This document shows positions 38,181 to 59,428 of a stretch of DNA of 64,000 nt, piece after piece. The notes under the pieces were generated by a model that did no database searches, was not told the origin of the DNA, and worked only from the letters and a program-made list of their open reading frames with translations. Origin of the DNA: Antedon mediterranea (taxonomy: Eukaryota; Animalia; Echinodermata); the NCBI RefSeq assembly GCF_964355755.1, contig NC_092676.1, forward strand, positions 29,939,499-30,003,498. Direction: 5' to 3'. The position numbers and the translations under genes are program-made. Numbering within the stretch: the stretch's first letter is position 1; each line of letters starts with the position of its first letter.

Positions 38181-38378
38181 GTAGGTAAAACACTTTTATG
38201 TTATTTTTATTTCAGTTGCTGTCAACCCTCCCAATAAATGCTGGAAACTTATATACTTATATACTTCTGGTTTTCCAGAAAAGTTGGTATTCCAAAAATG
38301 AAAAAAAAAATATATATCTTTGGACCTCAAAAAAAGGGAATTTATTTTGTTAATATTTGATGTAAATTTTATTTTTAG

Positions 38379-38478
38379 CGCAACAGCCAACAAACATTTG
38401 TTAAAATCCATTGCTCGTGTGGGAACAGGAGCTTTTGAGTTTTTTGATACAAGTTTAAAGTCAAGATGGGCAAAAAAG
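38379..38478 (+). CDS. PARP4: PARP4 exon 21 (SATANKHLLKSIARVGTGAFEFFDTSLKSRWAKK)
   Basis: Aligns with human GSTANRHVLRILSQCGAGVFEYFNAKSKHSWRKQ. Confidence 0.8.
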
Positions 38479-38815
38479 GTTAGATAAACATTTTATATGT
38501 TGTTTATTATATCATTATGTTATGTAATTGTCATTTAACTCCAATTAATTATCTTTAAAGGTTAGTTAAACATTTTATATGTTATTTATTATATCATTAT
38601 GTTATGTAATTGTCATTTAACTCCAATTAATTATCTTTAAAGGTTAGATAAACATTTGATATGTTGTTTATTATATCATTATGTTATGTAATTGTCATTT
38701 AACTCCAATTAATTATCTTTAAAGGTTAGATAAACATTTTATATGTTGTTTATTATATCATTATGTTATGTAATTGTCATTTAACTCCAATTAATTATCT
38801 TTAAATGCCAAAATT
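38479..38815. repeat. Tandem repeat, 82-bp unit x 4, in PARP4 intron 21
   Basis: gttagataaacattttatatgttgtttattatatcattatgttatgtaattgtcatttaactccaattaattatctttaaag repeated. Every unit recreates the donor context aaag|gttag. Confidence 0.85.
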
Positions 38816-38818
38816 TAG

Positions 38819-38989
38819 ATTAAAAGTCAGTTGTTGAAAGCAATGCAACCAGTGTTAAGCAACGTGAACGTTGAGTGGGAACAGTTAGAAGACAGCGCCC
38901 CCAAACCAATCCAAGCACCGAGTCAGATAACATCGTTATTCAGTGGATCACGTCAAGTTGTGTATGGATACGTTCCATGCTGTCGACAG
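38819..38989 (+). CDS. PARP4: PARP4 exon 22 (IKSQLLKAMQPVLSNVNVEWEQLEDSAPKPIQAPSQITSLFSGSRQVVYGYVPCCRQ)
   Basis: Aligns with human IEDQMTRLCSPSCHSVSVKWQQLNPDVPEALQAPAQVPSLFLNDRLLVYGFIPHCTQ. Confidence 0.8.
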
Positions 38990-39373
38990 GTAAATGCCTT
39001 CAGTTTGGTCGACTTTGAATAAAAAAGTGATACTAGAGATTCCCAAGTTCATTACATCATACATTCACTGGCATGTCAACATAAATGTCCACTTAATCTA
39101 AACATTCATATATCTGTCGACGAGAACAGCCGACTACGACCCATGTTGAAGTGGTCTTCGTTTACGTTCACTCAAATCTAAAAACTCCTATTAACAAGGA
39201 AAAGTGAAATTCGCTCTTCCCTTATTGATTGTTACTCATAAACTTATTTTATTTTTATTTTATTATTTTAAGGATTGTTTTCTTAATACACTTAAGTACA
39301 TACTCAAAATTTATAATCTCCACATTTTTGTATGTATTTTTTGTTATTTACTGTTATTGCCATTGTATTTAAG

Positions 39374-39454
39374 GCAACTTTAAAAGCTGAAATTAATGGT
39401 GAGGAGATTTCAACAAAGGTATCCACAAATGAACTTAACATCACAAGGGGTAAG
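39374..39454 (+). CDS. PARP4: PARP4 exon 23 (ATLKAEINGEEISTKVSTNELNITRGK)
   Basis: Aligns with human ATLCALIQEKEFRTMVSTTELQKTTGTM. Confidence 0.75.
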
Positions 39455-39830
39455 GTAAGTTTATGAATGGAATTTCTTTATTATCACAATTGATTCTTGT
39501 TCATTTGAGCGACGTTGGTGAGATTGGCTATGCGTTGCTTTTGTGTAATTTGTTGATATAAAGTTCGCGGTATAACACGAATATTTGATTTCGCCATGCA
39601 AACCTTCAAACAATGTAATTATTTCATATCAAGAATCGGGGGAAAATGTTACTTCTTTTTCCTCCTTCTTTTCATTTATTGCAATTTATTAATTATGTGA
39701 TTCTTTATTGTTTATTGGTTAGACTGAAAAATTGACCAAAACATTTTTTTTTAAATAGGAGAATAAATAAATAAAATTAAATCATTCTAAATTGACTTAT
39801 GATGGATTTAATATTTTTATGCTTGCGTAG

Positions 39831-40013
39831 ATATTGCACCAACTAACAGCCAGAGCAATTATCCGTGACTGGGAGGACGGAACGTTGGATGTTGACCCGG
39901 TAGAGCATGACATTAAGAAAGAAGCTCAGAAATCTTACATCATTGACCTGAGTAAAGAGTATTCTATAGTGACACAGTTTACAAGTTTCATCGCCGTAGA
40001 AGAACGAAATAAG
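39831..40013 (+). CDS. PARP4: PARP4 exon 24 (ILHQLTARAIIRDWEDGTLDVDPVEHDIKKEAQKSYIIDLSKEYSIVTQFTSFIAVEERNK)
   Basis: Aligns with human IHKLAARALIRDYEDGILHENETSHEMKKQTLKSLIIKLSKENSLITQFTSFVAVEKRDE. Confidence 0.85.
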
Positions 40014-40417
40014 GTAAAATTAACAATAATCATAAAATTTTAATGATTTTATATAGTGATAATAAAATGATATGTCTGTCGTTTGTGGGGCATCCCATGG
40101 TGGTGAAATTAGGTGGTATCTCTCTCTCATCTAATTGGTGCCGATTTATTAGCACCTTTCGGGGTCCCCCCGATCAAGACGCAGCAGTCTATGAGGTAAA
40201 TCTTTAGTATTCAACATTTCCATATACCTGTTTGTAGAGACTTGTAGAGAAATTGCATCGCCACCACAGCATTTCTTGTGTTGTCAATGGTTTGTTTGAT
40301 TTTTGTAATGATTTTACTTTAAAATATTTCCAGTGAAGCAACATGTTGATTTGATTCATTTGGTAAAAGCATAAATGTACTTCTATGTTATATTCATTGT
40401 TTGTATTTATTATTTAG

Positions 40418-40600
40418 ACTGATTTTGTGGACGCTATTTTTAAGCCAAGTATCAACGACCTTGTCGCAAAAGAGGATGTAGATACTATTCCTTATGTTTC
40501 ATGGGAAGACACGCTTAAAATTGAAGATGTTGAATCAGATTTGCAAATACCTCCAGAAAAAACAACTGAAGATAATTTATGTTACTCTGCTATGGAAATG
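40418..40600 (+). CDS. PARP4: PARP4 exon 25 (TDFVDAIFKPSINDLVAKEDVDTIPYVSWEDTLKIEDVESDLQIPPEKTTEDNLCYSAMEM)
   Basis: Aligns with human ..PDIPKVSELIAKEDVDFLPYMSWQGEP. Confidence 0.8.
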
Positions 40601-40741
40601 GTAAGTAATAAATAAATGATGTAATCAATACAAATTTCACCTGGCCACTTTCATTCAAATATTACATGGCCACCTTCACTACATTTTATATTATACTATT
40701 TCCATTACTAATGTACTTTTTTTGTTCTTTTTTTATTTAAG

Positions 40742-42013: not shown

Positions 42014-42076
42014 ATATGGGTATTCCTGAATCAGTAAAGATTAAGAGTAGTAGATACAGACAATTAAGACAAGCAG
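42014..42076 (+). CDS. PARP4: PARP4 C-terminal exon (YMGIPESVKIKSSRYRQLRQA)
   Basis: Acceptor tatag 42009-42013, donor gtttgt 42077; phase 1 in, phase 1 out. Confidence 0.45.
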
Positions 42077-42258
42077 GTTTGTATGAAACATCATTATTAT
42101 TAATATTTCAATTTGTTATTAATAAAACAAATCATTTTTAAACTCATAAAAATACTGTGTTTACTCACTCTCAGGTTGTTATACAAATTATATATTACAT
42201 ATAATCCCTCAAGAAAAATATAATTATGTCTCTTTTTTTGGTAAAACCTGTTTTATAG

Positions 42259-42366
42259 CTTGTTATGATTTCGGTTTAGAACATCAAAAGATAGCTCCAG
42301 ATTTAAGTGGAGTAGGTTGCATGGGAATAGATATTCGACCACGACGAGGAGGATTAAATATTAAAG
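42259..42366 (+). CDS. PARP4: PARP4 C-terminal exon (ACYDFGLEHQKIAPDLSGVGCMGIDIRPRRGGLNIK)
   Basis: Acceptor ttttatag, donor gtatgt 42367; phase 1-1. Confidence 0.5.
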
Positions 42367-42633
42367 GTATGTTTTCACATAGAAAATTAGACTTAAAATA
42401 TGCCCATCTATGCTGTGTGTTTTTCACTGTTTTAGTTAAAATTTAAGTTATGATTAAGTGTTAAAGTTAAGATCCTTCTTGCTTTCTTTTGTTTTTATTT
42501 TGTTTATGTATTTAAGAATTTATTTATTTTATATATACTAGGAGTTGCTGGCTTATTTAAGCCTAGTATGATGTATGTATCTTATTTAGCTGGTCAAAAT
42601 CAATCCTAGTAATTTCTTTTTCTTTTTTATTAG

Positions 42634-42669
42634 CAAAGAAGAGTGAAAAGCCAGTGAGATTTTCACCAG
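42634..42669 (+). CDS. PARP4: PARP4 C-terminal module exon (AKKSEKPVRFSP)
   Basis: Phase 1-1 36-nt exon between ttattag and gtaatc; paralogous to 43502-43537. Confidence 0.45.
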
Positions 42670-43019
42670 GTAATCTCTTTGAGACACATGGTGATTGTCT
42701 GAGTATCTTATTTTATATTTGAATATACAAGCAGTTTTTGGTTCTCTAAGAAACTTTTATTAAAACTTTTTATTGAAAACTTCATATGCTTTCACTTTCG
42801 TTAAAGGTGTATCCCCAAAACATGAATAAAATCTGACTTTTAATAGGCCATTTTGCAGTTTTAATAAAGTTATTCACTTCTATAGAAAATGAAAACCAAA
42901 CAAAATTATTATTTCACTTATAAAAAGACAAAATAAACAGTTTATTTTAACCAAAAACTCTGACATATAATTTGAGTATTTGTTGCTTTAAATTACATTT
43001 TTTTCAGGTAAATCATTTT

Positions 43020-43165
43020 TTTCATATGCGATTCAAAGTGAATAACTATTATGCGACATTAAAATATGCCATTTAATGTCGACATTGAAATATGCTATTT
43101 AATGTTGACATTAAAATATGCCATTTAATGTCGCATAATAGTTATTTACTTTGAATTGCAAAAAA
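43020..43165. mobile_element. MITE-like hairpin in a PARP4 intron: inverted ends (cgattcaaagtgaataactattatgcgacatt / aatgtcgcataatagttatttactttgaattgc) enclosing 4 tandem 26-bp units (taaaatatgccatttaatgtcgaca)
   Basis: The terminal segments are exact reverse complements. Confidence 0.6.
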
Positions 43166-43212
43166 AAATATGCATGTTCAACAAAAAATGTTTTAAATAA
43201 TTATTTTTTCAG

Positions 43213-43281
43213 AGGGACAATATATGCTTCTAAAACAGTATGCCTTAGGCGATTGCAGTGTCCCTGCACCAACAGCTAAAG
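43213..43281 (+). CDS. PARP4: PARP4 C-terminal module exon (EGQYMLLKQYALGDCSVPAPTAK)
   Basis: Phase 1-1, acceptor tttttcag, donor gtttga. Confidence 0.45.
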
Positions 43282-43501
43282 GTTTGATTTTCTTTCTATT
43301 TAGGAGCTAATTACTTAATTAGCCCTCAGTAGCATTTCCTGTCACCAACTTTGGTGCTTAGTGCACATAATTATTATTCTTTTGTATTCACTTGATCTTG
43401 AAAATGGTTCTATGATGGTACCGAAATGTCCATCTCTCTTTTTTTCATTAAATTTATATTCAATCCTACTAATTTCTAATCCTACTTTTTGTTTTTATTA
43501 G

Positions 43502-43537
43502 CATTAAAGAGTGAAAAGATAGCGAGACGTAGAAAAG
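43502..43537 (+). CDS. PARP4: PARP4 C-terminal module exon (ALKSEKIARRRK)
   Basis: Phase 1-1; paralog of 42634-42669 with similar flanking intron sequence. Confidence 0.45.
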
Positions 43538-44017
43538 GTAATTAATCTCTTAAAAGACCCATTTATGTTTAAGATTTAGTCTTTCAGTTTTATTGTTCTT
43601 ATGAATGTTACATGAGTGATTGATTCTGTCTGTATTTTGATAATCAGAAGTTGGGTTCAAACAATAAAAAGTGTGTCAACGTCCTTACTGTATGAAACTG
43701 TATAACGAGCAAAATGGTATTGCACCACAAAAGATCAATGTTTACTTTATTGTTTATCTAATGGCGATACCTTTTTTCCACTAATAGCATCTTATTTAAT
43801 GTTTGAATATACAAAAAAGTTTTTGGTTCTTTAAGAAACTTGTTTGATTAAACTTTCTTTCTTTCACTTTTAATTAGCTCTACTTCTAGATTGTTTTGAT
43901 TTGCTGTTACTATGTCAGTGTATGATTAAAAATGATCCAGCATAGTACAGTGTCAATAGTATGTAATTAGAGTGGCAAACTTGTTATATTTATATACTGT
44001 TATCATATACATTTCAG

Positions 44018-44107
44018 CAGCCGCAGCCCCAGAATATATTGGCAGCTTTGTAGGAAGCTGCAATTTAGAAGCATTGGAAAGTTGTCCTCGTGTCCAAACA
44101 GGTTCAG
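44018..44107 (+). CDS. PARP4: PARP4 C-terminal module exon (AAAPEYIGSFVGSCNLEALESCPRVQTGS)
   Basis: Phase 1-1; paralog of 47484-47555 (intragenic segmental duplication). Confidence 0.45.
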
Positions 44108-44347
44108 GTAGTGTTCAAATTATTCATTGATTGCTTTAAATAAGTTTACAAGTTATCAAAAATGACATTAAAGGTAGAAAATCTGTAATACCAAGAAGAA
44201 TATTAATCTCAGTTTTTTTTTCTAATTAGCAATACCTTTTTTCCACTAATAGCATCTTATCTTATCTTAATATTTGAAAATACAAAAAGTTTTTGGTTCT
44301 TAAGAAACTTGTTTGATTAAACTTTCTTTCTTTCACTTTTGTTAAAG

Positions 44348-44395
44348 AATTAAATTGTTTTGATTTGGACAGTGTATCAGCACCAAGAGCTAAAG
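44348..44395 (+). CDS. PARP4: PARP4 C-terminal module exon (ELNCFDLDSVSAPRAK)
   Basis: Phase 1-1, ends ..aaag|gtatg. Confidence 0.45.
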
Positions 44396-44862
44396 GTATG
44401 TTTTTTGATAAAACAAAATGCAAAACATGTATGTATCTATTGTACTGTTTCAGATTAGAATTTGTTTGTGTGCCAATGTGCTTATACTTAAGGTCCATTT
44501 ACACTAGGACGATCTGCATTTTTCAAACATAATCAAAAGAAATGTAAATAGTTTTCATTCTAGAACTATAAGATAACCATCCATGCTTTAATGAAAATGA
44601 TACTTTCACAGCAACATTTTTATTTATCGTGACGCCTTGATTGGATTTTTAACAATAATATTTTTATCAAAGACAGCATAAATGATTATTCTGTAGTTCT
44701 TCTAGAACGAAAACCTTTCTAATTTCTTTTTTTTTATCTAAGAAAAATGCATGCTTATTTATCGTCAATCGTTATCATCCTAATGTAAATGGGCCTTTAT
44801 GTATTTGGATATCCAATTATCTTTATTATGATTAATATTATAATGATTTTTTTTTTTATCAG

Positions 44863-44910
44863 CATTTTCTAACAGTAAAAGAAAAATTTATACTAAGTCA
44901 TTTTCTAAAG
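44863..44910 (+). CDS. PARP4: PARP4 C-terminal module exon (AFSNSKRKIYTKSFSK)
   Basis: Phase 1-1, ends ..aaag|gtatg. Confidence 0.4.
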
Positions 44911-45435
44911 GTATGATGTTAACTTATTATTCATGTATGTTGGTATAGTATCTTCATAAGCATGATTAATTATTTAAAAAATCAACTGGACTGGCTATTA
45001 AATCAGCTCTCATGCTATTGGCATCATTGAACATTCCAGAAAAGAATTTGTTGATTAAACCATTTTATTTGTTTATCACATGCAATTTTTATTCGTACTC
45101 TAAATGAAGACATGATTATTGTAGTATTCAGTATTATGGTGATTACTGTAAAGACAGTACAGTAATGGTGATATACATAATCACTGTACAGTACAGTCCT
45201 TTCATTATCATTGTCTTTATAATTTATCTAAAATAAATTGGACGTTATCGTACCTAAAGTTATGGATTAAACCATTTGTTTATTCCATGATATTTTCGTT
45301 TATATTTGAATGTCGATACTTCAAATGTAGATAATTCAAATGAAGAAATTGTGGTATACCTCATTGAATAAAGTAATTTTTTAAGAGACTTGTTTAATGA
45401 CTTTTGATATGCTTTCAATTTGTGTGTGTGTTTAG

Positions 45436-45522
45436 AAGCCAGTTGTTTTGATATTATTGAGGCTCAATCACCACCACCACTGCCGCCAAAGCTAAAACTT
45501 GCCAGTATGAACAACAGATCAG
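45436..45522 (+). CDS. PARP4: PARP4 C-terminal module exon (EASCFDIIEAQSPPPLPPKLKLASMNNRS)
   Basis: Phase 1-1, acceptor tttag, donor gtaatt. Confidence 0.45.
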
Positions 45523-45589
45523 GTAATTTTAAAGTCACACGACAGCATCTTTTATTTTTCTATAAGACATTCTATTAGTGATACAGTCA

Positions 45590-45745
45590 CTCAGGGAGAG
45601 ACCTCTTGGGTTGAGCAGGAGAGACTCATGTTGTGTAGTGTTGACTCAATCCAATAAAGTAGTATTAGTGATACAGTCACTCAGGGAGAGACCTCTTGGG
45701 TTGAGCAGGAGAGATTCCTGTTGTGTAGTGTTGACTCAATCCAAT
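45590..45745. repeat. Tandem duplication of about 74 bp x 2 in a PARP4 intron
   Basis: tattagtgatacagtcactcagggagagacctcttgggttgagcaggagaga.tc.tgttgtgtagtgttgactcaatccaataaagtag. Confidence 0.8.
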
Positions 45746-45771
45746 AAAGTAGTATTTGTAGCTAGCTACTG

Positions 45772-45880
45772 TAAAGTTCTGTTTACACTATCAAACTAGT
45801 TTGACAAAAAAAGTGTAATGTGCCCAAATATGGTAGTGATATGCTTAAATATGGTAGTGATATATCATCATCATGTGCCA
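45772..45880. mobile_element. MITE family copy, partial, in a PARP4 intron
   Basis: aaagttctgtttacactatcaaactagtttgacaaaaaaagtgtaatgtgcccaaatatggtagtgatatg.. Confidence 0.6.
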
Positions 45881-46062
45881 TAACTAATCCGTTTTTGTTG
45901 TCCATCATTCGAAACAGTAATGGTGATATACAATATAATGGTGTTCTTTAATTATCATTGTTTTTATTATTTACTTAAAATAAATTTGAAGTTACCATAC
46001 CTAAAGTTATGCATTAAAGCATTTGTTTATGCCATGATATTTTCATTTATATTTGAATGTAG

Positions 46063-46134
46063 ATACTTCATGTGATGACATGGGTAGTTTATGTGGAATG
46101 GATTTCAAAAGCATGGTAAACTTCTCGGATTTAG
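46063..46134 (+). CDS. PARP4: PARP4 C-terminal module exon (DTSCDDMGSLCGMDFKSMVNFSDL)
   Basis: Phase 1-1; the upstream intron duplicates 45100-45330. Confidence 0.4.
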
Positions 46135-46558
46135 GTAAGTTATTTCACCATATTAGATAACATAATTTAAAAATAAGAAAACTGGAAAAAGATGGTAAAC
46201 CAAGAAGAAAATTTGTTTTAACCAGTAATTCTGATTCTTTGGAATTGTTACAATAGAACAGTATTTATATACTTAATGTTGTACACGTGTCTAGCTTTCT
46301 CAAAGTGAACTGAATGTTTACCTAATGTTGTACACGTGTCTAGCTTTCTCAAAGTGAACTGAATGTTTGCAAAACGTTTTAAGTACCATTTTAGTACTTT
46401 TAATCTTTTGAATCAACAAAAAAGAAACCTTCTCTTCTTTTCATTATACTACACAATATATACTTTTACACGTAATATACTGAGAATTAAATAATTCATT
46501 TATAACAGTGAGGACAAGGAATTATAATTACTCTAGCAATGTTTCCTTTTTTTTTCAG

Positions 46559-46603
46559 TGGAAAGAGGCGGTGTATTATCTGGTGAAAAACAGTTGAAAA
46601 GGG
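46559..46603 (+). CDS. PARP4: PARP4 C-terminal module exon (VERGGVLSGEKQLKR)
   Basis: Phase 1-1, donor gtaggt. Confidence 0.4.
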
Positions 46604-46826
46604 GTAGGTGCTGGATTTTAGCAGCATATGTATATTTATTTGCATATATATTTATGTAATGCTACAATTGTTGCTAGGTTATTATTAAGAATATCAAAAT
46701 AATGTAAAGCTTGTAACACCATCAATGATGTCATTTATTTGTATTGTTCATTTGGAGTTCTCGCTTTTGAATGTTGTTACTGAAATGTAGAATATAATTA
46801 TTCTGTTTTTTTTATAATATTTTTAG

Positions 46827-46850
46827 CAACGATATTCAAGAAAAAAAAAG
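46827..46850 (+). CDS. PARP4: PARP4 C-terminal module exon (ATIFKKKK)
   Basis: Phase 1-1, donor gtaagt. Confidence 0.35.
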
Positions 46851-47297
46851 GTAAGTTTCTTGTGATTGGAAGTCAAAAATATTCAAATTAGAAACAAGTT
46901 AATAATCAGGTAGAATTAAAAGCTCTGGTATCCTTAGGCAAGATACAATTTTGGGTGTAGGTGTAGAAATGGGTACCAAGTTAGATCAAGACACAACTTT
47001 GCGCTGATTACTAGCTGCATTATGGGAGTATGTTTCCATACATGTTTGATAAAAAAAAGTGATCAGGTTAATAATGTGAAGTGCTTAGAAGCATTGTGCA
47101 AAGCGCTATATAAGAACAATTATTATTATAGATGATTTGAAATAGTGGGTGGGCTTAAGGGCTGAACTGCTGAACTTAACCTACTGCTTTATCTTTACAT
47201 TGTCATTTTCAAAACTTTGGAGCCAGTTGCCTGTTTTTTTGGTTGTTTTTTTTTAAATTGTTAAACAATTAATAAATTATACTGCTTTATTTATCAG

Positions 47298-47333
47298 GAT
47301 TTTCACTTGGTTTTCCTAAACGCAAAACAAATG
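47298..47333 (+). CDS. PARP4: PARP4 C-terminal module exon (GFSLGFPKRKTN)
   Basis: Phase 1-1, donor gtaaat. Confidence 0.4.
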
Positions 47334-47483
47334 GTAAATATGTTTTCATTTTGTTTAGCTTATTTTGTTGTTCAGAATTACTGTCAATGTATGATTAAAA
47401 ATGATCCAGCATAGTACAGTGACAATAGTATGTATTTAAAGTTGCAAACTTGTTATAATTGATGATATTATATACAGTTTCAG

Positions 47484-47555
47484 CAGCCACAGCACATTTC
47501 TCACTAGAAAGCTGCAATTCAGAGGCATTTGAAAATCGTTGTCATTTCCAAACAG
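47484..47555 (+). CDS. PARP4: PARP4 C-terminal module exon (AATAHFSLESCNSEAFENRCHFQT)
   Basis: Phase 1-1; paralog of 44018-44107. Confidence 0.45.
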
Positions 47556-47918
47556 GTAGTGTTCAAATTATTCATTGTCTACTTTAAATAAGTTATCGAA
47601 AATGACATTAAAAGGTAGAAAATCTTTAATAATACCAGGAAGAGTATTAATGTCACTCTCTCCTGGTATTACTTGGTAACTAAGTTTGTCAAAATCCGGG
47701 AGAATGATCTTAATGAATTCTGCACAATTATACTACCATAAACTAAATTATTATTTTGGATTATGTTGATAGTTTTTGCCTTGAGTAAATTACTGTTATG
47801 TTTATCTATTTTTCCACTTTTATAGATACAGTAACAATATTTATTTAAATCAATGAAGTCAATACCAACTCTCCAGATATGAAATTTCATCAATATTGTC
47901 AATATATTTTTCCCCTAG

Positions 47919-47969
47919 ATATGAAGAGTGATGATGAACTTGATTTTGATTTACTGTCTTACTATCAGA
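47919..47969 (+). CDS. PARP4: PARP4 C-terminal exon (DMKSDDELDFDLLSYYQ)
   Basis: Phase 1 in; donor gtaagt at 47970, which is the first unit of the 41-bp tandem array. Confidence 0.45.
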
Positions 47970-48410
47970 GTAAGTAAATACTTTGGTTTAGTACTGTCTT
48001 ACTATCAGAGTAAGTAAATACTTTGGTTTAGTACTGTCTTACTATCAGAGTAAGTAAATACTTTAGTACTGTCTTACTATCAGAGTAAGTAAATACTTTG
48101 GTTTAGTACTGTCTTACTATCAGAGTAAGTAAATACTTTAGTACTGTCTTACTATCAGAGTAAGTAAATACTTTGGTTTAGTACTGTCTTACTATCAGAG
48201 TAAGTAAATACTTTAGTACTGTCTTACTATCAGAGTAAGTAAATACTTTAGTTTAGTACTGTCTTACTATCCGAGTAAGTAAATACTTTGGTTTAGTACT
48301 GTCTTACTATCAGAGTAAGTAGATACTTTGGTTTAGTACTGTCTTACTATCAGAGTAAGTAAATACTTTAGTACTGTCTTACTATCAGAGTAAGTAAATA
48401 CTTTTTTTTA
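47950..48410. repeat. Tandem repeat, 41-bp unit x about 11 (gtactgtcttactatcagagtaagtaaatactttggtttag) spanning a PARP4 exon-intron junction
   Basis: Each unit contains the last 14 nt of the exon plus the gtaagt donor. Confidence 0.9.
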
Positions 48411-48417
48411 TTTTCAG

Positions 48418-48503
48418 TGGAGAATAATGAATTGGCACTTACTTCTGCTGAAAGTGATGCCATCTACCATTCTGTACAAAGAGTCTCTTCAGCTCAACAC
48501 AAG
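48418..48503 (+). CDS. PARP4: PARP4 C-terminal exon (MENNELALTSAESDAIYHSVQRVSSAQHK)
   Basis: Acceptor ttttcag 48411-48417, donor gtagta; phase 1 in, phase 0 out. Confidence 0.5.
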
Positions 48504-48716
48504 GTAGTATACAAGTACTATTTAACGAGCGCTAAATAGTGCGTACTATTGCACGCCATGTGACCCACAATCGTCCAATCAAATGACAGGAATTTATTTA
48601 GGTGTTATAAAATAACAAATATCAAACAGGTTATTGAAGCATTTGAGCAGATATGTTTATCTTATAAAATGTGAATAATCTTAATTAATTGACATATTTT
48701 GTTTGTTGATCTTTAG

Positions 48717-48810
48717 CACAATAAATCATGGAGGATACCATGTCTACGTGAATTATTAAAACTTGAAAAATTGATTGAAGAACATGCTCAAATTATTTCA
48801 CAAACGCATG
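48717..48810 (+). CDS. PARP4: PARP4 C-terminal exon (HNKSWRIPCLRELLKLEKLIEEHAQIISQTH)
   Basis: Acceptor ctttag, donor gtaaga; phase 0 in, phase 1 out. Confidence 0.5.
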
Positions 48811-48879
48811 GTAAGATTTAAGAGTTTCAATTATTAGTACCACATATATGTAATATTAAATACAGTACTTAAAACTCTT

Positions 48880-50105
48880 AAAAGAGTTTTAAGTACTGTA
48901 CTGTATACTCAATTTGTACTGTATACTCAATCTGTACTGTATACTCAATTTGTACTGTACACTCAATCTGTACTGTATACTCAATTTGTACTGTATACGC
49001 AATTTGTACTGTATACTCAATTTGTACTGTATACTCAATGTGTACTGTATACTCAATTTGTACTGTATACTCAATTTGTACTGTATACTCAATTTGTACT
49101 GTATACTCAATCTGTACTGTATACTCAATCTGTACTGTATACTCAATTTGTACTGTATACTCAATTTGTACTGTATACTCAATCTGTACTGTAGTACTCA
49201 ATTTGTACTGTATACTCAATTTGTACTGTATACTCAATCTGTACTGTATACTCAATTTGTACTGTATACTCAATCTGTACTGTAGTACTCAATCTGTACT
49301 GTAGTACTCAATTTGTACTGTATACTCAATTTGTACTGTATACTCAATTTGTACTGTATACTCAATTTGTACTGTATACTCAATCTCTACTGTATACTCA
49401 ATTTGTACTGTATACTCAATTTGTACTGTAGTACTCAATTTGTACTGTATACTCAATTTGTACTGTATACTCAATCTGTACTGTAGTACTCAATTTGTAC
49501 TGTAGTACTCAATTTGTACTGTATACTCAATTTGTACTGTATATTCAATCTGTACTGTATACTCAATTTGTACTGTATACTCAATTTGTACTGTAGTACT
49601 CAATTTGTACTGTATACTCAATCTGTACTGTAGTACTCAATCTGTACTGTATACTCAATTTGTACTGTATACTCAATCTGTACTGTAGTACTCAATTTGT
49701 ACTGTAGTACTCAATTTGTACTGTATACTCAATCTGTACTGTATACTCAATTTGTACTGTATACTCAATTTGTGCTGTATACTCAATTTGTACTGTATAC
49801 TCAATCTGTACTGTATACTCAATCTGTACTGTATACTCAATCTGTACTGTAGTACTCAATTTGTACTGTAGTACTCAATTTGTACTGTATACTCAATCTG
49901 TACTGTATACTCAATTTGTGCTGTATACTCAATTTGTGCTGTATACTCAATTTGTACTGTATACTCAATTTGTACTGTAGTACTCAATTTGTACTGTATA
50001 CTCAATTTGTACTGTACACTCAATCTGTACTGTATACTCAATTTTTACTGTAGTACTCAATTTGTACTGTATACTCAATTTGTACTATATACTCACATTT
50101 TTTTA
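48880..50105. repeat. Satellite, 18-bp unit (actcaatttgtactgtat and variants ctg/gta) x about 68, 1.2 kb, in a PARP4 intron
   Basis: Direct repeats; the ORF-track ORFs 48878-50041 on both strands are artefacts. Confidence 0.95.
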
Positions 50106-50202
50106 TCACATAAACTTTGATAGTGTAGACAGAGCTTTATACGTGAGCAGTTATTCTGGCCTATGCCTATTGAGTTTGCTAAATAAATATTATTATTGTT
50201 AG

Positions 50203-50502
50203 ATGAAATTGAGACCTGCAAGAGCATCTTAAGTACAGCAGTAGTGGTATGTTTGCTGGAGTATTTACTTGTGAATCTGGTAAAGGTTTGTCAAAATGGA
50301 ACAAGGATTTGGACACGAACGGTTTACAGAACTGCATTTTATTCACTTTGGGAAGGTGAAAGTTATATGGACAAAAAATCAAAAATGTCAAAAAAGCCTG
50401 ACTGTGTATCGATGCAATTACTAAGGAAGCTTACACTGACTGGACTAACTCTTACAGAGTATGTTGAAAAACATATATTAGGGGCTTGGCAGCATGTACC
50501 AG
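50203..50502 (+). CDS. PARP4: PARP4 penultimate exon (DEIETCKSILSTAVVVCLLEYLLVNLVKVCQNGTRIWTRTVYRTAFYSLWEGESYMDKKSKMSKKPDCVSMQLLRKLTLTGLTLTEYVEKHILGAWQHVP)
   Basis: 300-nt open frame, phase-compatible with both neighbours; loosely aligns with the human MVP-interaction region ..ECLLDLIATMLVLQFIRTRLEKEGIVFKSLMKMDD. Confidence 0.55.
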
Positions 50503-51419
50503 GTATTTTTGAATTTCTTTTATTTAGAATCATTTTAATTATGGATAATAATAATAATGGGGCTAAGATGTAAGCAAGAGCTTTAGACGCAAAGTCGCTT
50601 TAAATGAATAAATATAAAATAAATAAATAAATGAATAAATTTAAAATAAATAAATAATTGAATAAATTCAAAATAAATAAATAAATAAAATCAATAAAAT
50701 GTACCATTGTAACGATAATAATAATACTAACAATAGAAATATGCAGTGTTATGTCTAGAATTCACTAGCCCCCTTCAACAAACCACACATAATACATAAG
50801 ATATACAATTTCATTCAACAGTTTTTTTAGTAACACTAATGCTTGGTTCCCACTAGAGACGCAACACAAGGACGTAACGCAACGAAATGAGTTAACGAAT
50901 CACAAGCGATTGGATATTTGAACTGTAGCCTGTCCTTGGTCAACACGCTTGCATTGTTTCTAGGTCCTTGCGTTGCGTCCAAAGCTTAAGTGTCAAGATT
51001 ACCGTGTCATCATCTTAAAATTTAAAAAAAAATTATTTTAAAATATAAACCAGTTCTATACAGATTATAATGTATCATTTTTGAATTAACGTTTTTACTT
51101 ATACATACTTATATGTAGATTTAGATATCAGAAGTTTCAATTTTGCTGGTTCTGAAGTGAATTTGTCTGCATATATATTAAAACTGTTGTGGTCTGAATT
51201 TGATTGGGAAAGTGTAAGTTGATAGTACTTGTAATCATTATAAAACACTGAATTATAATGTGAAGTAAACATTAGTGTGAGTTAATTAGTTGTTTAACTA
51301 TAAAGTACATTTTTTTTGTATAACAACAGTAGACAATATACATTTAACATGTCCAACTGCATTCATGAGGCACTCTTATAATAAGACACTTTGTTGGGTC
51401 AGAAATGTGTCCTCTTAAT

Positions 51420-51660
51420 GGGAGTTCTACTGATTACCTGTATGTATGTATCATTTAATTATCTTATAGAAAACATACATGAGTCACTCGAGGTATATGA
51501 AGTATAAGCTGGTTACATTTGTATGTGGCCAGTAATGTAACCATTTAATTACCTTATAGAAAACATACATGAGTCACTCAAGGTTGTACTGTATATAAAG
51601 TATAAGCTGGTTACATTTGTATGTGGCCAGTAATGTAACCATTTAATTATCTTATAGAAA
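51420..51660. repeat. Tandem duplication of about 120 bp x 2 in the last PARP4 intron
   Basis: ..atttaattatcttatagaaaacatacatgagtcactc.aggt...agtataagctggttacatttgtatgtggccagtaatgtaacc.. repeated. Confidence 0.8.
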
Positions 51661-52112
51661 AGATTTTGGAAATTGTCTGCAACATTTGCTGTAATATTTG
51701 CCATCAAACGGAGATTTGTTGTTGCTTTGCTGGAACGTGCTGGTATCAAGGCACTAGGTAATCCATTTGACATTTTTGGGAATGACTCTTGTAGTTAAAG
51801 TAATCTTATTTACTTTAGCAGCCCCTGACCCATTTATCCCTGTAGGCCTATATTTTACATTATGTTGGTCAAATAAATTAATGAAATGAACATTAATGGA
51901 CCATAGTAGTAATGGTAAAACACAAAGAACAATACAAGACAATTTGGAGAATGAGTTTAAAATAATTTGCTGTGACAATAATTATTATGTAATATTATTA
52001 TTTATTTTTAAAAAGGCTTCTTAATTCTTAACAGCACTTGATTAAACAATCTCTGATTATTCTTGAATATTGAAAAGGTTATTTTTTTATTTTATAATTT
52101 TTTTTTTTGTAG

Positions 52113-52333
52113 ATTTAACACTGCAGAAGAAAGTTCACTTCATGCTAGCTATTGCCATTGCTCTTGAAAGATTCCAGTCTTCAAAGAATTTAAGAGAAAT
52201 AAAAAAACAACCAATAAAACAGCTGAATGCATGGTTAGATGAGAGTGAAAATGATAACTATGGACTTGCCTCACATCTAGAACTTGGCCAAGACTGGCGC
52301 GATGTGGCATCTAAGTTGTGTACAAATAAGTAA
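52113..52333 (+). CDS. PARP4: PARP4 terminal exon (DLTLQKKVHFMLAIAIALERFQSSKNLREIKKQPIKQLNAWLDESENDNYGLASHLELGQDWRDVASKLCTNK*)
   Basis: Aligns with the human PARP4 C-terminus ..WAFEAIKQASEWVRRTEGQYPSICPRLELGNDWDSATKQLLG; stop TAA 52331-52333. Confidence 0.7.
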
Positions 52334-52420
52334 TAGCTTAAAGACTCACTGGTATCTAGAACTTGGCCAAGACTGGTGTGATGTGGCATCTTAGTTGTGT
52401 ACAAATAAGTGATACTGTCG
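52265..52420. repeat. Tandem duplication of about 77 bp x 2 spanning the PARP4 stop codon
   Basis: ctagaacttggccaagactggcgcgatgtggcatctaagttgtgtacaaataagtaatag.. followed by ctagaacttggccaagactggtgtgatgtggcatcttagttgtgtacaaataagtgatac. Confidence 0.85.
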
Positions 52421-53739
52421 CTTAAGTATAAAGACTCACTGGTATCTGAACCTTTACTGATTTATGCTGTATATGTGGCAGCAGATACATATAGTTTTGT
52501 CCAAGATGAGAGTTTTGTGAAAGGGCCATAATTACATTTTGTATAGTTTAGTATAGGGCATGTGTGTTATTAGTACTGTACATAAATTACATAAATTACA
52601 TAAATTACATTTTTAAAGTTTTGTAATGTGAATGTTGTCATACAGAATTTACAGTACTGAAAAATGAAAAAACTTAAGTTTGCACTTAAATAGTGTGCAT
52701 AGATATATAATATATATTATAGGAGTATAACTTTTTTGTGAGCCACTTTATTAACTATGTTACAAATTGTATACATAGTCATTTATTTTTTATGAATTAA
52801 TCATTTCATCAGATATTCTACCTTTATTTATATTTTTAATTTTTGCAATGTAAACAAACATTTTTGCAATGTAAACAAATAAATGTATATAATCATAATT
52901 ATATTATTAATTATTATAATAATGTTGATGTTTAATTAAGTTAAGTATGTTAAATATGTTTTGTCAAAAACATGAAAAATGAAGAATAATAAATCAGACT
53001 TTTAAGAATAGTTTTAAAGAAGTTACAAAAAGGTAGAAAAAACACAAAAAAAAAATATTTTCACTTTTAAAAAGAGAAAATAAACAGTTAAACCAAAAAC
53101 CTATAGGCTGACAGGTAAATATATATTTTGTGAATAACTATAATATGTGACATTAAAATGGAATATTCAGGGACAATTAATATATCTTTTGGAAATGCTA
53201 TAGATTGAGAAATAAATGTAATCAACTTATAAAATATTGTTTCCTGAATAATGTTTATTTTTATATTTATTATACAGTAATTAGAAACTAACATTCGTGG
53301 TGTTCCGCACCATTCAGTACATTACTACAGCAAAATACTCTTGAATGTTGTTTGACTATTAAACAACAATTAAACAAGGTTAAATAGACAGACATGCTGA
53401 GAATGTTGTGTTTTTTTTTTTATCTCGGATTGATTGTCTTAAAAAGTCACACTTGACGTCCACCCTCTATTTTCGATTATCCAATCAGAATTCCGTTATC
53501 ACAATGAACCCCCTAAGGTAACGAAGAATAGAATGTGTGTATTGATTATTGACGAATGGCGAGTCAAAAAGTGGTGGAGTTTCCAAAACAACCACAAACA
53601 TGACTGACCACAGATAATACATCTGTCTGTTAAAGTTTAATAAAACATCTAAAAGGTAAGTAAATGGAGAAAAATGAAGAAATAAAATGTTTGTCAATAA
53701 GCAGTGTACTGTCTAAGTATTTCAATTACTAGATGATAC

Positions 53740-54086: not shown

Positions 54087-54229
54087 ATGAGTAACGGTGG
54101 AACTTTCGCAGTTCCTGGGAAGCCGCCCCCACGACCTGGTGGCCGAAAAGCAACAAAATTTGCAGAAAGAAAAGGATCATTACCAGCAAGTATTATTAAG
54201 ACTGACTTGAGCAGACTAAAACTTGAAAG
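54087..54229 (+). CDS. UBE3A: UBE3A (E6AP) first coding exon (MSNGGTFAVPGKPPPRPGGRKATKFAERKGSLPASIIKTDLSRLKLE)
   Basis: ATG 54087 after acceptor-like tttttgacag (an upstream 5'UTR exon is possible); donor gtagag 54230; phase-compatible with exon 2. Confidence 0.55.
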
Positions 54230-54400
54230 GTAGAGCAAGCGGTCTACATGCACCAATCAATATGCATGTAGTAGTGTGAAAATGAAACATTGATGTTTGA
54301 TTTGCCATCTTCAGACCGGAACAGCTAGTGTGAAAGACTCTAGTTTATATATTAATTTGTTGTTGTTTTACAGTTACATTTTATTTTAAATTTTTATAGA

Positions 54401-54511
54401 CATCAATCGCAACCAAAACTCTCAAGAGATGAAGGTGGTGGCTCGATGAACAATATATTATTTCAACGAGGGCGCTCTAATAGTTTGACACCGCTAGATA
54501 GTTTTAAAAAG
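54401..54511 (+). CDS. UBE3A: UBE3A exon 2 (RHQSQPKLSRDEGGGSMNNILFQRGRSNSLTPLDSFK)
   Basis: Acceptor ttttatag, donor gtgagt 54512. Confidence 0.55.
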
Positions 54512-54637
54512 TGAGTTAAATAGTTGTTTTTTCAATATCTGTGTTGCATACTATAATATTTAACTCTTTTTATAATTAAAATCTGACTCAACTTGGTTGC
54601 CTGTTATTTTGTTTGTAACTTTTTAAAATGTATACAG

Positions 54638-54846
54638 GACCTTAAGTGCCAGCAACCTTGCCGCTTTGTCAGACAGTAATCTATCAATCACGAGAGCATT
54701 GCCGTTTAAAAGCTATGATAAACCAAACACGATGAGCAGTGCCCTCAAAGACCAATGGCAACGGCTAGTCAAGCGATATTATTTTCAAATAACCAATGGT
54801 TGTGGCAATGAGCAATGCAGAAATAAGTTTTGTGCTTCATGTAAAG
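54638..54846 (+). CDS. UBE3A: UBE3A exon 3 (AZUL zinc-binding domain: ..ALKDQWQRLVKRYYFQITNGCGNEQCRNKFCASCK)
   Basis: Matches human [31 protein letters not shown]. Confidence 0.85.
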
Positions 54847-55054
54847 GTATTTTGAAATTTATAATTTGTTTTCTCATTTCTGTTTTGATTTATTTAGATA
54901 GCATACAGGAATATTTAATAGAGACAAAAACAAACATGAAACTCATTTGCATGGTACAAGGGATAGCCTTCTAAATCCCCAAAAGGTAGTCCCCTTTATT
55001 TTATTAATAAGAAATAAACAATTGTTTTATCTAATTACATTCTGGTTTTCACAG

Positions 55055-55118
55055 ATCATGTGATTGTAAATGGAGGCAATGCTGTCATAGTTTGTATACA
55101 TCTTGCTTCCCATCAAAA
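55055..55118 (+). CDS. UBE3A: UBE3A exon 4 (DHVIVNGGNAVIVCIHLASHQ)
   Basis: Phase-compatible, acceptor cacag, donor gtaagt 55119. Confidence 0.6.
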
Positions 55119-55239
55119 GTAAGTGGAAGTATTTTGATTTTGCTGTACCTTTTTTATTTATAACTATATTATTAACTATTTAAAGCTCTCTCTACACTAT
55201 CAAACTTTATGTAGTAAAAAATTGTTTTGTTTTTCATAG

Positions 55240-55743
55240 GCAATATATTTGTTCATCAGAGAATTTGATTGGTTGTTCCTTGCCAAAAGATGTCTTCCAG
55301 CCAGAAGAAGGCCAATCAAAACCTTTCTTATATTCATTATACTCTTGTACACCATTTGCATCATTGTTTGTTGATAAAGGCAATCCAGATGAAACAGACT
55401 CTATTAGTCGAATGGATAAAAGAAACACTCTAAAAGCATCTAGTCTTGATAATGTTATATCCACCAATAAAAAACAGCAGTTCAAAGTTCAAGAAAGAGA
55501 TAAAAAATCATTGGCTGATCCAAGGCAGCTAGTGACCAACAAAACTGATGTCATTGACGTGCCTTCCCAGCATTCATCATCAACACAACGTCATGATGAG
55601 TTAAAAAATGAAGAACTTTTACCTAACAAATTAAAAAGCTTGTCCATTGATTTAAGCAAAGTTGGCGTGGGTACTATTTCAAATGTCCACTCTTCAATTG
55701 ACTTGGATCATCATCACCATGGCTACGATACGTTATCATTGAG
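55240..55743 (+). CDS. UBE3A: UBE3A exon 5: long low-complexity linker exon (KQYICSSENLIGCSLPKDVFQPEEGQSKPFLYSLYSCTPFASLFVDKGNPDETDS...IDLDHHHHGYDTLSL)
   Basis: 504-nt open frame between ag 55238-55239 and gtaagt 55744. Confidence 0.6.
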
Positions 55744-55852
55744 GTAAGTAATATTACAATATAAATATATTATTTATAAATTTGGACAAATAAAAATAAT
55801 ATACAGTAGTTATACCTTAATTATGTTTATATATATTTTTTTTACTATTTAG

Positions 55853-56105
55853 GTCTGTTAGTGACCACCAGCTTCCTAATAGATACCATACTAATTTATC
55901 ATGTTCTCAAGTTAGTCTACACTCAAATCAATCATTAAGTTCTCTCTCCAACACGTTACCTTTTACTCAAAGTCCAATACCAAGCCATGAAGCTTTAGTG
56001 GAGACGGAAGACTTAGTTGCCTTTGAACGATCGTTGTCCTGTGAAATGTCGCTAGAAATACCATCCGAGTTTTCACTGACACACTTGACCTTTGACATGT
56101 TACAG
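55853..56105 (+). CDS. UBE3A: UBE3A exon 6 (RSVSDHQLPNRYHTNLSCSQVSLHSNQSLSSLSNTLPFTQSPIPSHEALVETEDLVAFERSLSCEMSLEIPSEFSLTHLTFDMLQ)
   Basis: Open 253-nt exon, acceptor ctatttag, donor gtactg. Confidence 0.6.
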
Positions 56106-56410
56106 GTACTGTATGTAGTATAGATTTCCAATGTTACTTAGTATATATTAGTATTGTTAGTGATTGGTGTACATTCTTAAACAATCGACTAGATTAGTAA
56201 CAATTAGTGAATTTTATTTTATATATTTTACATATACTCTACCAATACTCTCTGAAATTCTCCCAAAACCTGCTTGACATCCCAAATCTCTTTATTACAT
56301 TTACCAGAATTTATGGAATATCATTAACAATTCTGTACCAGAATTTATGGAAAACCAGACAAGATATGGTGGTATACTGTACTAATGTTGACTGGATATT
56401 TATTTCTTAG

Positions 56411-56512
56411 GCACCTGTTGATCACTATAAGCTATGTTCTGATCCATCATTCCTGATCAACACAATAAGAACTGTGTTCACTTCATCAGATGCTCTCAAT
56501 TCCAGCTTCCTT
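56411..56512 (+). CDS. UBE3A: UBE3A exon 7 (APVDHYKLCSDPSFLINTIRTVFTSSDALNSSFL)
   Basis: Phase 0-0, acceptor tttcttag, donor gtaagt. Confidence 0.65.
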
Positions 56513-56535
56513 GTAAGTTTTTTGTTATGTATTGT

Positions 56536-56665
56536 AAAGCTCTGTCTAAACTACCAAACTTTAGTATGACAAAAAATGTGATGTGCCCATATATGGACAT
56601 GTTGATGTCCATATTTCAGCACAGCACACTTTTTTGTCAAACTAGTTTCATAGTGTAGACAGCTT
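56536..56665. mobile_element. MITE family copy in UBE3A intron 7
   Basis: aaagctctgtctaaactaccaaac...tttcatagtgtagacagctt. Confidence 0.8.
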
Positions 56666-56733
56666 AATGGTTACTGTATATAAAAGGGTGATAAGAACAA
56701 ATTAACTGATGTTTTTTATCTATTTTTATGAAG

Positions 56734-56907
56734 GTAAAAGAAGATGACTTTAGTAGTGGGGTTGACCTGGAAGCAGTTAGTAAAGCATATGACCTTTTGT
56801 TGAATCTTTATCCATGCGATGTCTTTCAGTCAACAATGAATAATTCACTTGAGATTCTTATGTCTTCTATCCATCCTGCATCTGTTCAAAATGATGATAT
56901 TAATCAG
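56734..56907 (+). CDS. UBE3A: UBE3A exon 8 (VKEDDFSSGVDLEAVSKAYDLLLNLYPCDVFQSTMNNSLEILMSSIHPASVQNDDINQ)
   Basis: Phase 0-0, donor gtaaaa 56908. Confidence 0.65.
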
Positions 56908-56980
56908 GTAAAAAAACTCACAAAATAATAAACATTTAAACCAAACAGTGAAAGTGTAAATCTAAGCAAATAAATGTATA

Positions 56981-57147
56981 AAGCCCTTTCTACACTATCA
57001 AACTAGTTTGACAAAAAAAAGTGTGATGTGCCCAAATATGGTAGTGATATGCTTAAATATGGTAGTGATATGACATCATCATGTCCATATATATGTGCAC
57101 ATCACACTTTTCTTGTCACATAAAGTTTGATAGTGTAGACAGAGCTT
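56981..57147. mobile_element. MITE family copy in UBE3A intron 8
   Basis: aagccctttctacactatcaaactagtttgacaaaaaaaagtgtgatgtgcccaaatatggtagtgatatg...cacataaagtttgatagtgtagacagagctt. Confidence 0.85.
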
Positions 57148-57185
57148 AACAATGTTATCACTATATAATCTATTTTTAGTTTCAG

Positions 57186-57379
57186 ATATTGCTTGCAAAT
57201 CCCTTATTTGTTAGTAACCATGAACTATTATGCAAATTGTCTGCAATATTGGGGGCTCTGTCTACATCTACGAAGAATGCTTTAGTGAAAATATTAAGCA
57301 CCTATGAACGAACGAGCTTCCAAAAACTGATCACCATGTTTAAGACTCATTTATCTGCAATGCTGCATCCACAACAAGG
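57186..57379 (+). CDS. UBE3A: UBE3A exon 9 (ILLANPLFVSNHELLCKLSAILGALSTSTKNALVKILSTYERTSFQKLITMFKTHLSAMLHPQQ)
   Basis: Matches human ..ADQIRRMMETFQQLITYKV. Confidence 0.7.
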
Positions 57380-57539
57380 GTTTGTAAGATTCAACGTTTA
57401 CTTGTGGAGGGTGTTGGCAATTTAGTAAAATTGTATTCACCATAAAATAATATGTGTTAAGATCCTGCTAACATATGGTTTTATTCTATTAAGGTCAGAT
57501 GAAACAAAGTCAGCTTGTGTTTTTTTAATTTATTTACAG

Positions 57540-57656
57540 TTCTGAGGACAATCTAATTGATGTTGCAGAAGTTCTTGAAATCCTTTATGACGCCAACACA
57601 TTATCTGAAAAGACCTTAGCATCATGTGAACAATTTTACTCTGACGAAGTATCAAG
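57540..57656 (+). CDS. UBE3A: UBE3A exon 10 (GSEDNLIDVAEVLEILYDANTLSEKTLASCEQFYSDEVS)
   Basis: Matches human [20 protein letters not shown]..; acceptor tttacag, donor gtaaat. Confidence 0.7.
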
Positions 57657-58071
57657 GTAAATTAAGGAACTTCATGGTATTCACCATTTATTGTACCTAC
57701 TGTATGGTAGAATACCGTAAGCACTAAGTCAGTCAAGAAGATACATCTAACTCACTCTTAATACTTTATATTAAATTGATAACTTTATTTAGAATCATTA
57801 ATGATATTATATTGATGTTGCAAAAGTTCTTGATATCCTTTATGATGGCAACACACTATCTGAATTGAGAAACTTTAAGTCAGTCAAGAAGATACATCTA
57901 ACTAACTAAATGAATACAACATACAAGATAAATTTATTGTCAAATAATTCAACGAAAGATTTGGTTTTTCTCATGGCAACTTAATATAACAATAGAATAA
58001 AATCATTAAAATGTTTAGAACACAAAGTAAAATAAACAGTACAGTATGATTGTTTTTTATTTTGAAAATAG

Positions 58072-59385: not shown

Positions 59386-59428
59386 CATATACGCTTATAT
59401 CAAAATAAATAAATTTAATTGGCTGTAG

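Follow-up and report, generated by a model that had tools for sequence, protein, structure and literature searches.

In the crinoid Antedon mediterranea, intron 15 of an uncharacterized gene consists almost entirely of a minisatellite whose first unit spans the exon-intron junction. The repeat presents a strong 5′ splice site 12 times ahead of one acceptor. The explanation that we find probable is that a young, essentially neutral junction-spanning minisatellite has lengthened this intron, and that the reiterated donors are mostly ignored while the most upstream site is chosen. Judged from its DNA sequence, the architecture is the same as that of the F7 IVS7 VNTR and of the amphioxus 'mirages'. 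All positions given below are those of the window, which is the whole 64,000-nucleotide stretch of DNA that was analysed, and a slash denotes a splice junction.

The assignment of the exon follows from an independent gene model. An exon chain was derived from open reading frames and splice phases before the RefSeq model was known. This chain (47919-47969, 48418-48503, 48717-48810, an exon beginning at 50203, 51658-51757 and 52113-52333) has canonical AG/GT borders and is open to a TAA stop codon. An exhaustive HMMER search with the chain peptide returned a 594-aa protein at 98% identity. The protein is RefSeq XP_071957036.1, 'uncharacterized protein [Antedon mediterranea]', and contains HFQTDMKSDDELDFDLLSYYQMENNELALTS. 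Exact spliced mapping places it on the window at 100% identity in 21 GT-AG exons (42016-52333), between a PARP4-like gene and UBE3A. When joined, the 21 exons translate to XP_071957036.1 plus a stop, with consistent phases and one open frame of 594 codons.

Both routes lead to the same exon 15-16 junction. A sequence-only reading of this DNA had proposed an exon at 47919-47969 and an acceptor at 48417/48418, and these are exactly the boundaries of the RefSeq model and of the open 21-exon chain. Exon 15 is preceded by a strong acceptor (tttttcccctag/ATA) and ends at the donor AGA/gtaagtaa. Met297 is encoded by a codon that is split A/TG across exons 15 and 16, and the YYQ/M(A/TG)ENNE junction of the protein is reproduced only if 47969/47970 is joined to 48417/48418. 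The use of the first donor by the RefSeq model is to be read with the possibility in mind that this model may be partly ab initio; an ORF-maximizing predictor would pick the same site anyway.

Searches for the identity of the protein revealed no Pfam domain in XP_071957036.1 and no relative in the PDB. The proposals that the gene encodes a PARP4 C-terminus or a death domain are unsupported, as neither the Pfam nor the PDB search gave an identity. A word-indexed protein search with the peptide of exons 15-17 likewise produced no match. That search missed the exact 76-aa RefSeq match that HMMER found, and negative results from indexed searches are therefore weak evidence. The N-terminal half of the protein is encoded by exons of 24-108 nt, most of them 24-90 nt and in phase 1-1. 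Exons 3 and 5 are paralogous together with both splice sites (42618-42674 and 43486-43542), and exons 6 and 14 are paralogous together with their splice sites and upstream intron sequence (43887-44103 and 47356-47557). These mini-exons look like products of internal segmental duplication.

The features of the junction region are collected in Table 1. TRF describes the repeat as a head-to-tail array with a period of 40, 11.8 copies and a score of 745, and finds a second period of 75 bp (94% matches) that scores above the 40-bp period. When read copy by copy, the array is made up of seven units of 40 bp, four units of 35 bp and a terminal partial copy of 33 nt, which passes into the unique sequence TTTTTATTTTCAG/TGG. 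The 40-bp unit is TACTGTCTTACTATCAGA/GTAAGTAAATACTTTGGTTTAG, and the 35-bp unit is the same without GGTTT. Within each unit, 18 nt of exon-derived sequence precede a stretch of 22 or 17 nt that begins with GT and ends with AG. A 30-nt core of the repeat is matched 12 times at no more than one mismatch, compared with 0 matches expected in shuffles, and has no match in the rest of the 64-kb window. The TRF score and this comparison confirm that a tandem array straddles the junction far beyond chance, as had been noticed from the sequence. The repeat had been described with units of 41 and 34 nt that include the last 14 nt of the exon. That a repeat exists and includes part of the exon is correct, but the lengths are not: the units are 40 and 35 bp, because a flanking g had been counted twice, and the exon contributes 18 nt (47952-47969).

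Table 1. Features at the exon 15-intron 15 junction and the following acceptor (window positions)
Feature	Position	Strand	Description
Exon 15	47919..47969	+	51 nt, phase 1; (D)MKSDDELDFDLLSYYQ plus first base of Met297
Minisatellite	47952..48404	+	unit TACTGTCTTACTATCAGA/GTAAGTAAATACTTT(GGTTT)AG; unit 1 spans the exon 15/intron 15 boundary
Intron 15	47970..48417	+	448 nt
Authentic 5′ splice site GTAAGT	47970..47975	+	first of 12; donor used by the RefSeq model
11 reiterated pseudo-donors	48010..48395	+	same as authentic site over -18 to +15, except copies 9 and 10
Best branch-point candidate	48377..48383	+	CTTAC at 48378-48382, A at 48381; from YTNAY motif scan
Polypyrimidine tract and acceptor TTTTTATTTTCAG	48405..48417	+	unique sequence outside the repeat
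Exon 16	48418..48503	+	86 nt; (M)ENNELALTSAESDAIYHSVQRVSSAQHK

Array sequence fills 97% of intron 15 (435 of 448 nt), which bears out the description of this intron as essentially an array of donor sites. GTAAGT occurs at 47970, 48010, 48050, 48085, 48125, 48160, 48200, 48235, 48275, 48315, 48355 and 48390, compared with a density of about 0.4 per kb on the + strand outside the array. The reiteration of the donor is thus as reported, but the earlier count of about 11 copies with about 10 decoys is slightly low, since the 12 occurrences comprise one authentic site and 11 others. This copy number is that of one haplotype of one individual. The two pseudo-donors that differ from the authentic site do so at single positions (copy 9, A>C at -3; copy 10, A>G at +8). 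No special RNA structure that might mark out the first donor was found when exon 15 and the first copies were folded and compared with shuffles (z = -0.45).

Very little variation is present within the repeat. There are three substitutions in the full array, in copies 8, 9 and 10, plus one recurrent 5-bp indel, and the variant copies are grouped toward the 3′ end of the array. Three 75-bp dimers (40+35), identical to one another, make up copies 2-7. The 97.5-100% identity between copies and the 75-bp higher-order pattern lead us to judge that the array is young.

The coding consequence of each donor can be read from the sequence. Donor 1 gives an intron of 448 nt and the reading frame carries on. 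Donors 2-12 add 40-420 nt and leave introns of 408 down to 28 nt, and every one of them yields a product that ends ...LLSYYQSK-stop, because the retained GTAAGTAA reads AGT AAG TAA in frame. Only the inserts of 345 and 420 nt are divisible by 3, and both still encounter the in-frame TAA. The original proposal that any later donor would shift the frame is therefore right in that the message is ruined each time, but a frameshift does not occur in all cases. Taking in one 18-mer as an exon would keep the frame and add ILSYYQ, an outcome that is conceivable on paper.

Not all of the reiterated donors are expected to be equally serviceable. The predicted branch-point candidate has its A 36 nt from the acceptor, within the segment of the last copy that derives from the exon. 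Donor 11 would define an intron of 63 nt and is located 26 nt upstream of this candidate, and donor 12 would define an intron of 28 nt and is located downstream of it. Given these short introns and their placement near or past the candidate branch point, donors 11 and 12 are probably unusable, which would leave about nine feasible decoys. The donors here are strong, as GTAAGTA can form seven contiguous pairs with U1. When strong 5′ splice sites are duplicated in classical cis-competition, the site nearest the 3′ splice site is often favoured.

Several human genes carry arrays of comparable design. According to the report on the F7 IVS7 minisatellite, this repeat has a 37-bp unit in 5-9 copies, its first monomer spans the exon-intron boundary, and only the most upstream donor is used; the identical pseudo-sites are described there as never used while the upstream site is intact (Borensztajn et al. 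2006, PMC1557585). In F7 constructs, only pseudo-sites with perfect consensus are reported to shift splicing (Borensztajn et al., PMC1557585). The Antedon array resembles the F7 repeat in its boundary-spanning first monomer, its identical pseudo-donors, its unit length (40 bp versus 37 bp) and the fact that most pseudo-sites are out of frame. The two differ in copy number (12 versus 5-9) and in the amount of exon in the unit (18 nt versus 4 nt). Moreover, the F7 donor is weak (UGG/gugggu), whereas the Antedon donor is the near-consensus GTAAGTA. Usage and polymorphism were measured in the human gene, whereas the crinoid array is known from its sequence. The structural features of the class are all present in Antedon, namely a tandem 40/35-bp array, near-identical copies and a first unit that spans the boundary, with the boundary taken from the gene model and the ORF/phase chain.

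Other human examples are mentioned in PMC1557585. These include IFI6 6-16, with a 12-nt unit and 25 pseudo-sites, and CBS IVS13, with a 31-bp unit and 15-20 repeats or pseudo-sites (both cited in PMC1557585), as well as LMNB2 (100 bp, 10-15 repeats) and PDGFA intron 4 (81 bp, 16-18 repeats). In the IFI6 and CBS minisatellites, the first one or two pseudo-sites are reportedly used (PMC1557585). As in Antedon, each of these two minisatellites begins at an exon boundary and repeats the donor many times over. However, the IFI6 unit is a multiple of 3, its first two pseudo-sites are constitutive and the resulting isoforms are in frame. The Antedon units of 40 and 35 nt each include an in-frame TAA, and donor choice alone would not give a productive isoform. 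The array is therefore not of the IFI6 type, because its unit is not a multiple of 3 and there is a stop in every unit.

A parallel from an invertebrate deuterostome is provided by amphioxus. Two papers describe mirages as tandem duplications of exon-intron boundaries, both 5′ and 3′, in Adh3, the globins BflGb6/9, troponin C and PGBD5 (Canestro et al. 2002 as cited in PMC3087553 and PMC3902484). Their units are 10-160 bp with 81-100% identity, several can occur per gene, copy number varies between haplotypes, and no aberrant mRNAs are reported to arise (PMC3087553, PMC3902484). Experiments on mirages have shown that splicing is normal and that their length is unstable, allelically or somatically (PMC3087553, PMC3902484), whereas for the Antedon array such behaviour would be an extrapolation from sequence. 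Both are minisatellite-like boundary duplications in invertebrate deuterostomes that affect 5′ and 3′ boundaries and occur several close together. In the literature searched, no mirages are reported outside cephalochordates.

We infer that tandem duplication first affected a 40-bp segment with 18 nt from the end of exon 15 and 22 nt from the start of the intron. Amplification by slippage or unequal exchange would have followed, with a 35-bp variant created by a 5-bp deletion and a 75-bp dimer involved as well, until the repeat made up 97% of the intron. The expansion would have been tolerated as a near-neutral lengthening of the intron. Because all additional copies lie downstream of the first donor, they leave with the intron and the mRNA is unchanged if the most upstream donor is chosen, as we infer that it is. 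By analogy with the 5′-to-3′ selection of identical sites in F7 and with the amphioxus mirages, the 11 copies would be mostly silent, and any leakage would lead to the premature TAA and probably to nonsense-mediated decay. If the intron is collapsed to a single unit, only 28 nt are left, compared with a minimum of 144 nt among the other introns of this gene. The ancestral intron was therefore not just one unit plus the tail, and some sequence must have been lost.

The chief alternative is that the reiterated donors do compete, and that a sizeable share of the transcripts uses a downstream copy, gains the TAA and is degraded or truncated. The array would then act as a splicing sink that lowers the output of the gene, perhaps with a mildly deleterious effect. 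As the array is young, it may so far have escaped selection. The properties of the sites fit this reading, and equally count against the neutral one: apart from copies 9 and 10, the copies are the same as the authentic site over positions -18 to +15, all are strong matches to U1, at least nine pseudo-donors leave introns of 103 nt or more, and cis-competition tends to favour 3′-proximal sites. Among the human precedents, use of the first pseudo-sites in IFI6 and CBS and the shifted splicing of F7 constructs with consensus-strength pseudo-sites (Borensztajn et al., PMC1557585) point in the same direction. Nevertheless, we regard substantial competition as unlikely. The first donor is the one chosen in the RefSeq model, with the qualification given above for that model. 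The F7 and amphioxus reports describe identical pseudo-sites that are never used while the upstream site is intact and mirages free of aberrant mRNAs. Finally, the same architecture is present in a conserved PARP4-like gene nearby, which suggests that it is routinely tolerated. The sequence-only reading, in which about 10 decoys compete with the authentic donor, would thus appear overstated, since the F7 and mirage precedents are contrary to it and the last two copies are probably unusable.

A different type of objection is that exon 15 is not real or has its 3′ end elsewhere. The model would then be an ab initio artefact, the array would be intronic or intergenic, and the GTAAGT motifs would be incidental. 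Comparison with another crinoid, Anneissia japonica, bears on this question. XP_033113009.1 of this species is a clear homolog of XP_071957036.1, but of its C-terminal part only. Clear orthologs of exons 18, 20 and 21 are present in the Anneissia locus (L001), together with a weak ortholog of exon 17 (SWSFSSIQELTRLDNII). A permissive tblastn search of the locus gave no credible match to exons 15 and 16, which are short and belong to a protein with 36-48% identity even in the conserved part. An assembly gap in the locus (14430-15715) lies downstream and does not explain the missing exons. When the UBE3A N-terminus was used to look for a syntenic scaffold in crinoids, a 623-bp ENA fragment was the sole hit.

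Thus, no homolog spans exons 15-16, the upstream half of the model consists of tiny repetitive exons of which some are paralogous to each other, and the protein is uncharacterized and devoid of Pfam domains, all of which would suit an artefact. Yet we consider it very unlikely that the exon is spurious. The 21 canonical GT-AG exons have consistent phases and form one frame of 594 codons, the independent ORF/phase chain arrives at the same junction, and the acceptor tttttcccctag is strong. At a GTAAGT density of about 0.4 per kb, it is also improbable that a 40-nt unit would by chance carry this motif exactly at the end of an open exon. The conservation of exons 17 (weakly), 18, 20 and 21 in Anneissia japonica indicates that the gene itself is real.

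It is also hardly credible that intron 15 was newly gained through the duplication itself (Rogers-type or mirage-to-intron) instead of being an old intron that expanded: the 97% array content, the mere 28 nt left on collapse, the 18-nt exon-derived segment flanked by GT...AG in each unit, whose inclusion would be in frame (+ILSYYQ), and the proposal of Ebner et al. that mirages can create introns would all suit such an origin, but the repeat includes neither the acceptor nor the polypyrimidine tract, both of which are unique sequence, exon 16 does not begin with a copy of the end of exon 15, and an exonic origin of the 22 intronic nt of the unit is not convincing. In the Rogers model, as discussed in PMC3087553, tandem duplication of an AGGT proto-splice site gives rise to an intron. 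As in Antedon, a splice signal is duplicated, the resulting sequence is spliced out and the mRNA stays intact. However, both intron ends in that model derive from a duplicated exon segment, whereas in Antedon only the donor side does. The array thus does not fit Rogers-type intron gain, because the acceptor TTTTTATTTTCAG/TGG lies outside the repeat. An origin as an introner or transposon-borne intron was examined within the 64-kb window, where no further copy of the unit exists.

The expansion of an existing intron, which we favour, is in keeping with other differences between the two crinoid loci. The intron between exons 17 and 18 is about 96 nt long and free of arrays in Anneissia (L001 9774-9869), compared with 1392 nt in Antedon. 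The Antedon intron 17 holds an 18 bp x 66 array (TGTACTGTATACTCAATT) at 48897-50100, about 1200 of its 1392 nt. No large minisatellites were found in the 23-kb Anneissia locus. Since that locus lacks such arrays and its intron is about 96 nt as opposed to 1392 nt, array-driven intron growth looks specific to the Antedon lineage, on the small sample of one locus.

Other splice junctions in the window have been duplicated as well. The intron at 38479-38818 of the PARP4-like gene consists of four 82-bp units, each of which opens with AAAG/GTTAG followed by A or T, and constitutes a second donor-reiterating array. The protein junction at this site, RWAKK/IKSQLL, is collinear with KWERK/VKGQLL of the Anneissia PARP4-like protein, and the later donors lead to an in-frame stop. 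On the acceptor side, the exon 20 acceptor CATTTAATTA(T or C)CTTATAG/AAAA is present three times, at 51452, 51542 and 51640, with a period of 90-98 bp (51452-51682). The model uses the last of the three copies (exon 20 begins at 51658), making this a 3′-boundary mirage. Two donor cases and one acceptor case therefore occur within 14 kb of the window.

A third donor mirage was considered at 32747, where an 84 bp x 2 repeat carries GTAAGTAAGT, and was rejected. The true donor of the PARP4-like gene is GAAAG/GTAAAC at 32568/32569, and the repeat is therefore purely intronic. It belongs to an intronic family at 32597-32910 made up of one diverged copy and the two 84-bp copies at 100% identity, each with GTAAGTAA(G)T. 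These decoy-like donors are 28-330 nt downstream of the true PARP4 donor and are not junction duplications. A further duplication affects the end of the uncharacterized gene, where a 79-bp tandem duplication of 93% identity (52275-52454) has copied the last ~56 nt of the coding sequence and the stop codon into the 3′ UTR.

The number of junction-spanning events does not call for a special mechanism. The seven duplicated units of the gene (18-94 bp) were compared with randomly placed segments, and a junction was counted as spanned if at least 4 nt lay on each side. The gene has 40 junctions in 10.3 kb; if placed at random, 1.24 of the seven would be expected to span one of them, and 2 do. The suggestion that the expansion was seeded on the junction holds insofar as a junction segment has been expanded in tandem, but junction-specific seeding is rejected because random placement accounts for the count. 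In a minisatellite-prone genome with small, dense exons, some duplications are expected to fall on junctions, and those that leave splicing undisturbed persist.

The locus can be viewed as a natural experiment in 5′ splice-site choice, in which 12 near-identical strong donors face one acceptor and all but the first are lethal to the message. Human F7, IFI6 and CBS and the amphioxus mirages have already established the phenomenon, and the locus opens no new question. Its value is comparative, as the phenomenon is now placed in an echinoderm. With its array of 12 consensus-strength sites, it could test the rule that the most upstream site wins harder than F7 does. Exclusive use of the first donor would mean that this rule of oriented selection also holds in an invertebrate whose decoys are strong. 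If there is leakage, the locus would be a natural case of unproductive splicing that depends on repeat length. It also draws attention to loci of a kind at which the junctions assigned by gene predictors and splice-aware aligners can be ambiguous.

Together with the 82-bp donor array, the triplicated acceptor and the 18 bp x 66 array, the intron 15 repeat identifies minisatellite expansion as a major way, apparently a recent one, in which introns of this genome have grown longer. Whether junction-spanning minisatellites, described until now as a peculiarity of amphioxus and in a few human genes, commonly lengthen introns in Antedon mediterranea as a lineage-specific process is a more tentative matter; we see this as possible but would not presume it, on the basis of at least three such arrays in 14 kb (two at donors, one at an acceptor) as opposed to 0 in the orthologous Anneissia locus. 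If it is true, the genome of this crinoid would offer a natural library in which identical splice sites compete.

The window as a whole is eukaryotic in character, has a GC content of ~31% and is rich in minisatellites. Arrays are located at 8245-8701 (50 bp x 9, 100% identity), 29714-30179 (47 bp x 10), 36450-36909 (41 bp x 11) and 20046-21648 (130 bp x 12), and an array of ~1.1 kb at 11154-12271 has a palindromic 21-bp unit (AATTCGTTTAAACGAATTACT). By a rough sum of the TRF table, as distinct from a computed union, the larger arrays together occupy about one-tenth of the window. Two 53-bp arrays (17259-17456 and 18155-18380) are reverse complements of each other, separated by ~0.7 kb, and may be the terminal arrays of a transposable element. 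The remaining genes comprise a PPIL4-like gene (1-6000) with an RS-rich tail that includes a 36-nt coding repeat (5715-5871), a single-exon GPCR-like ORF of 307 aa (13852-14772), a LINE with ORF1 and an RT-containing ORF2 (23126-27262), the PARP4-like gene (27809-40612), which has 79% identity to that of Anneissia, and a UBE3A-like HECT ligase (54088-62440) with an AZUL domain (Pfam E = 4.5e-12).
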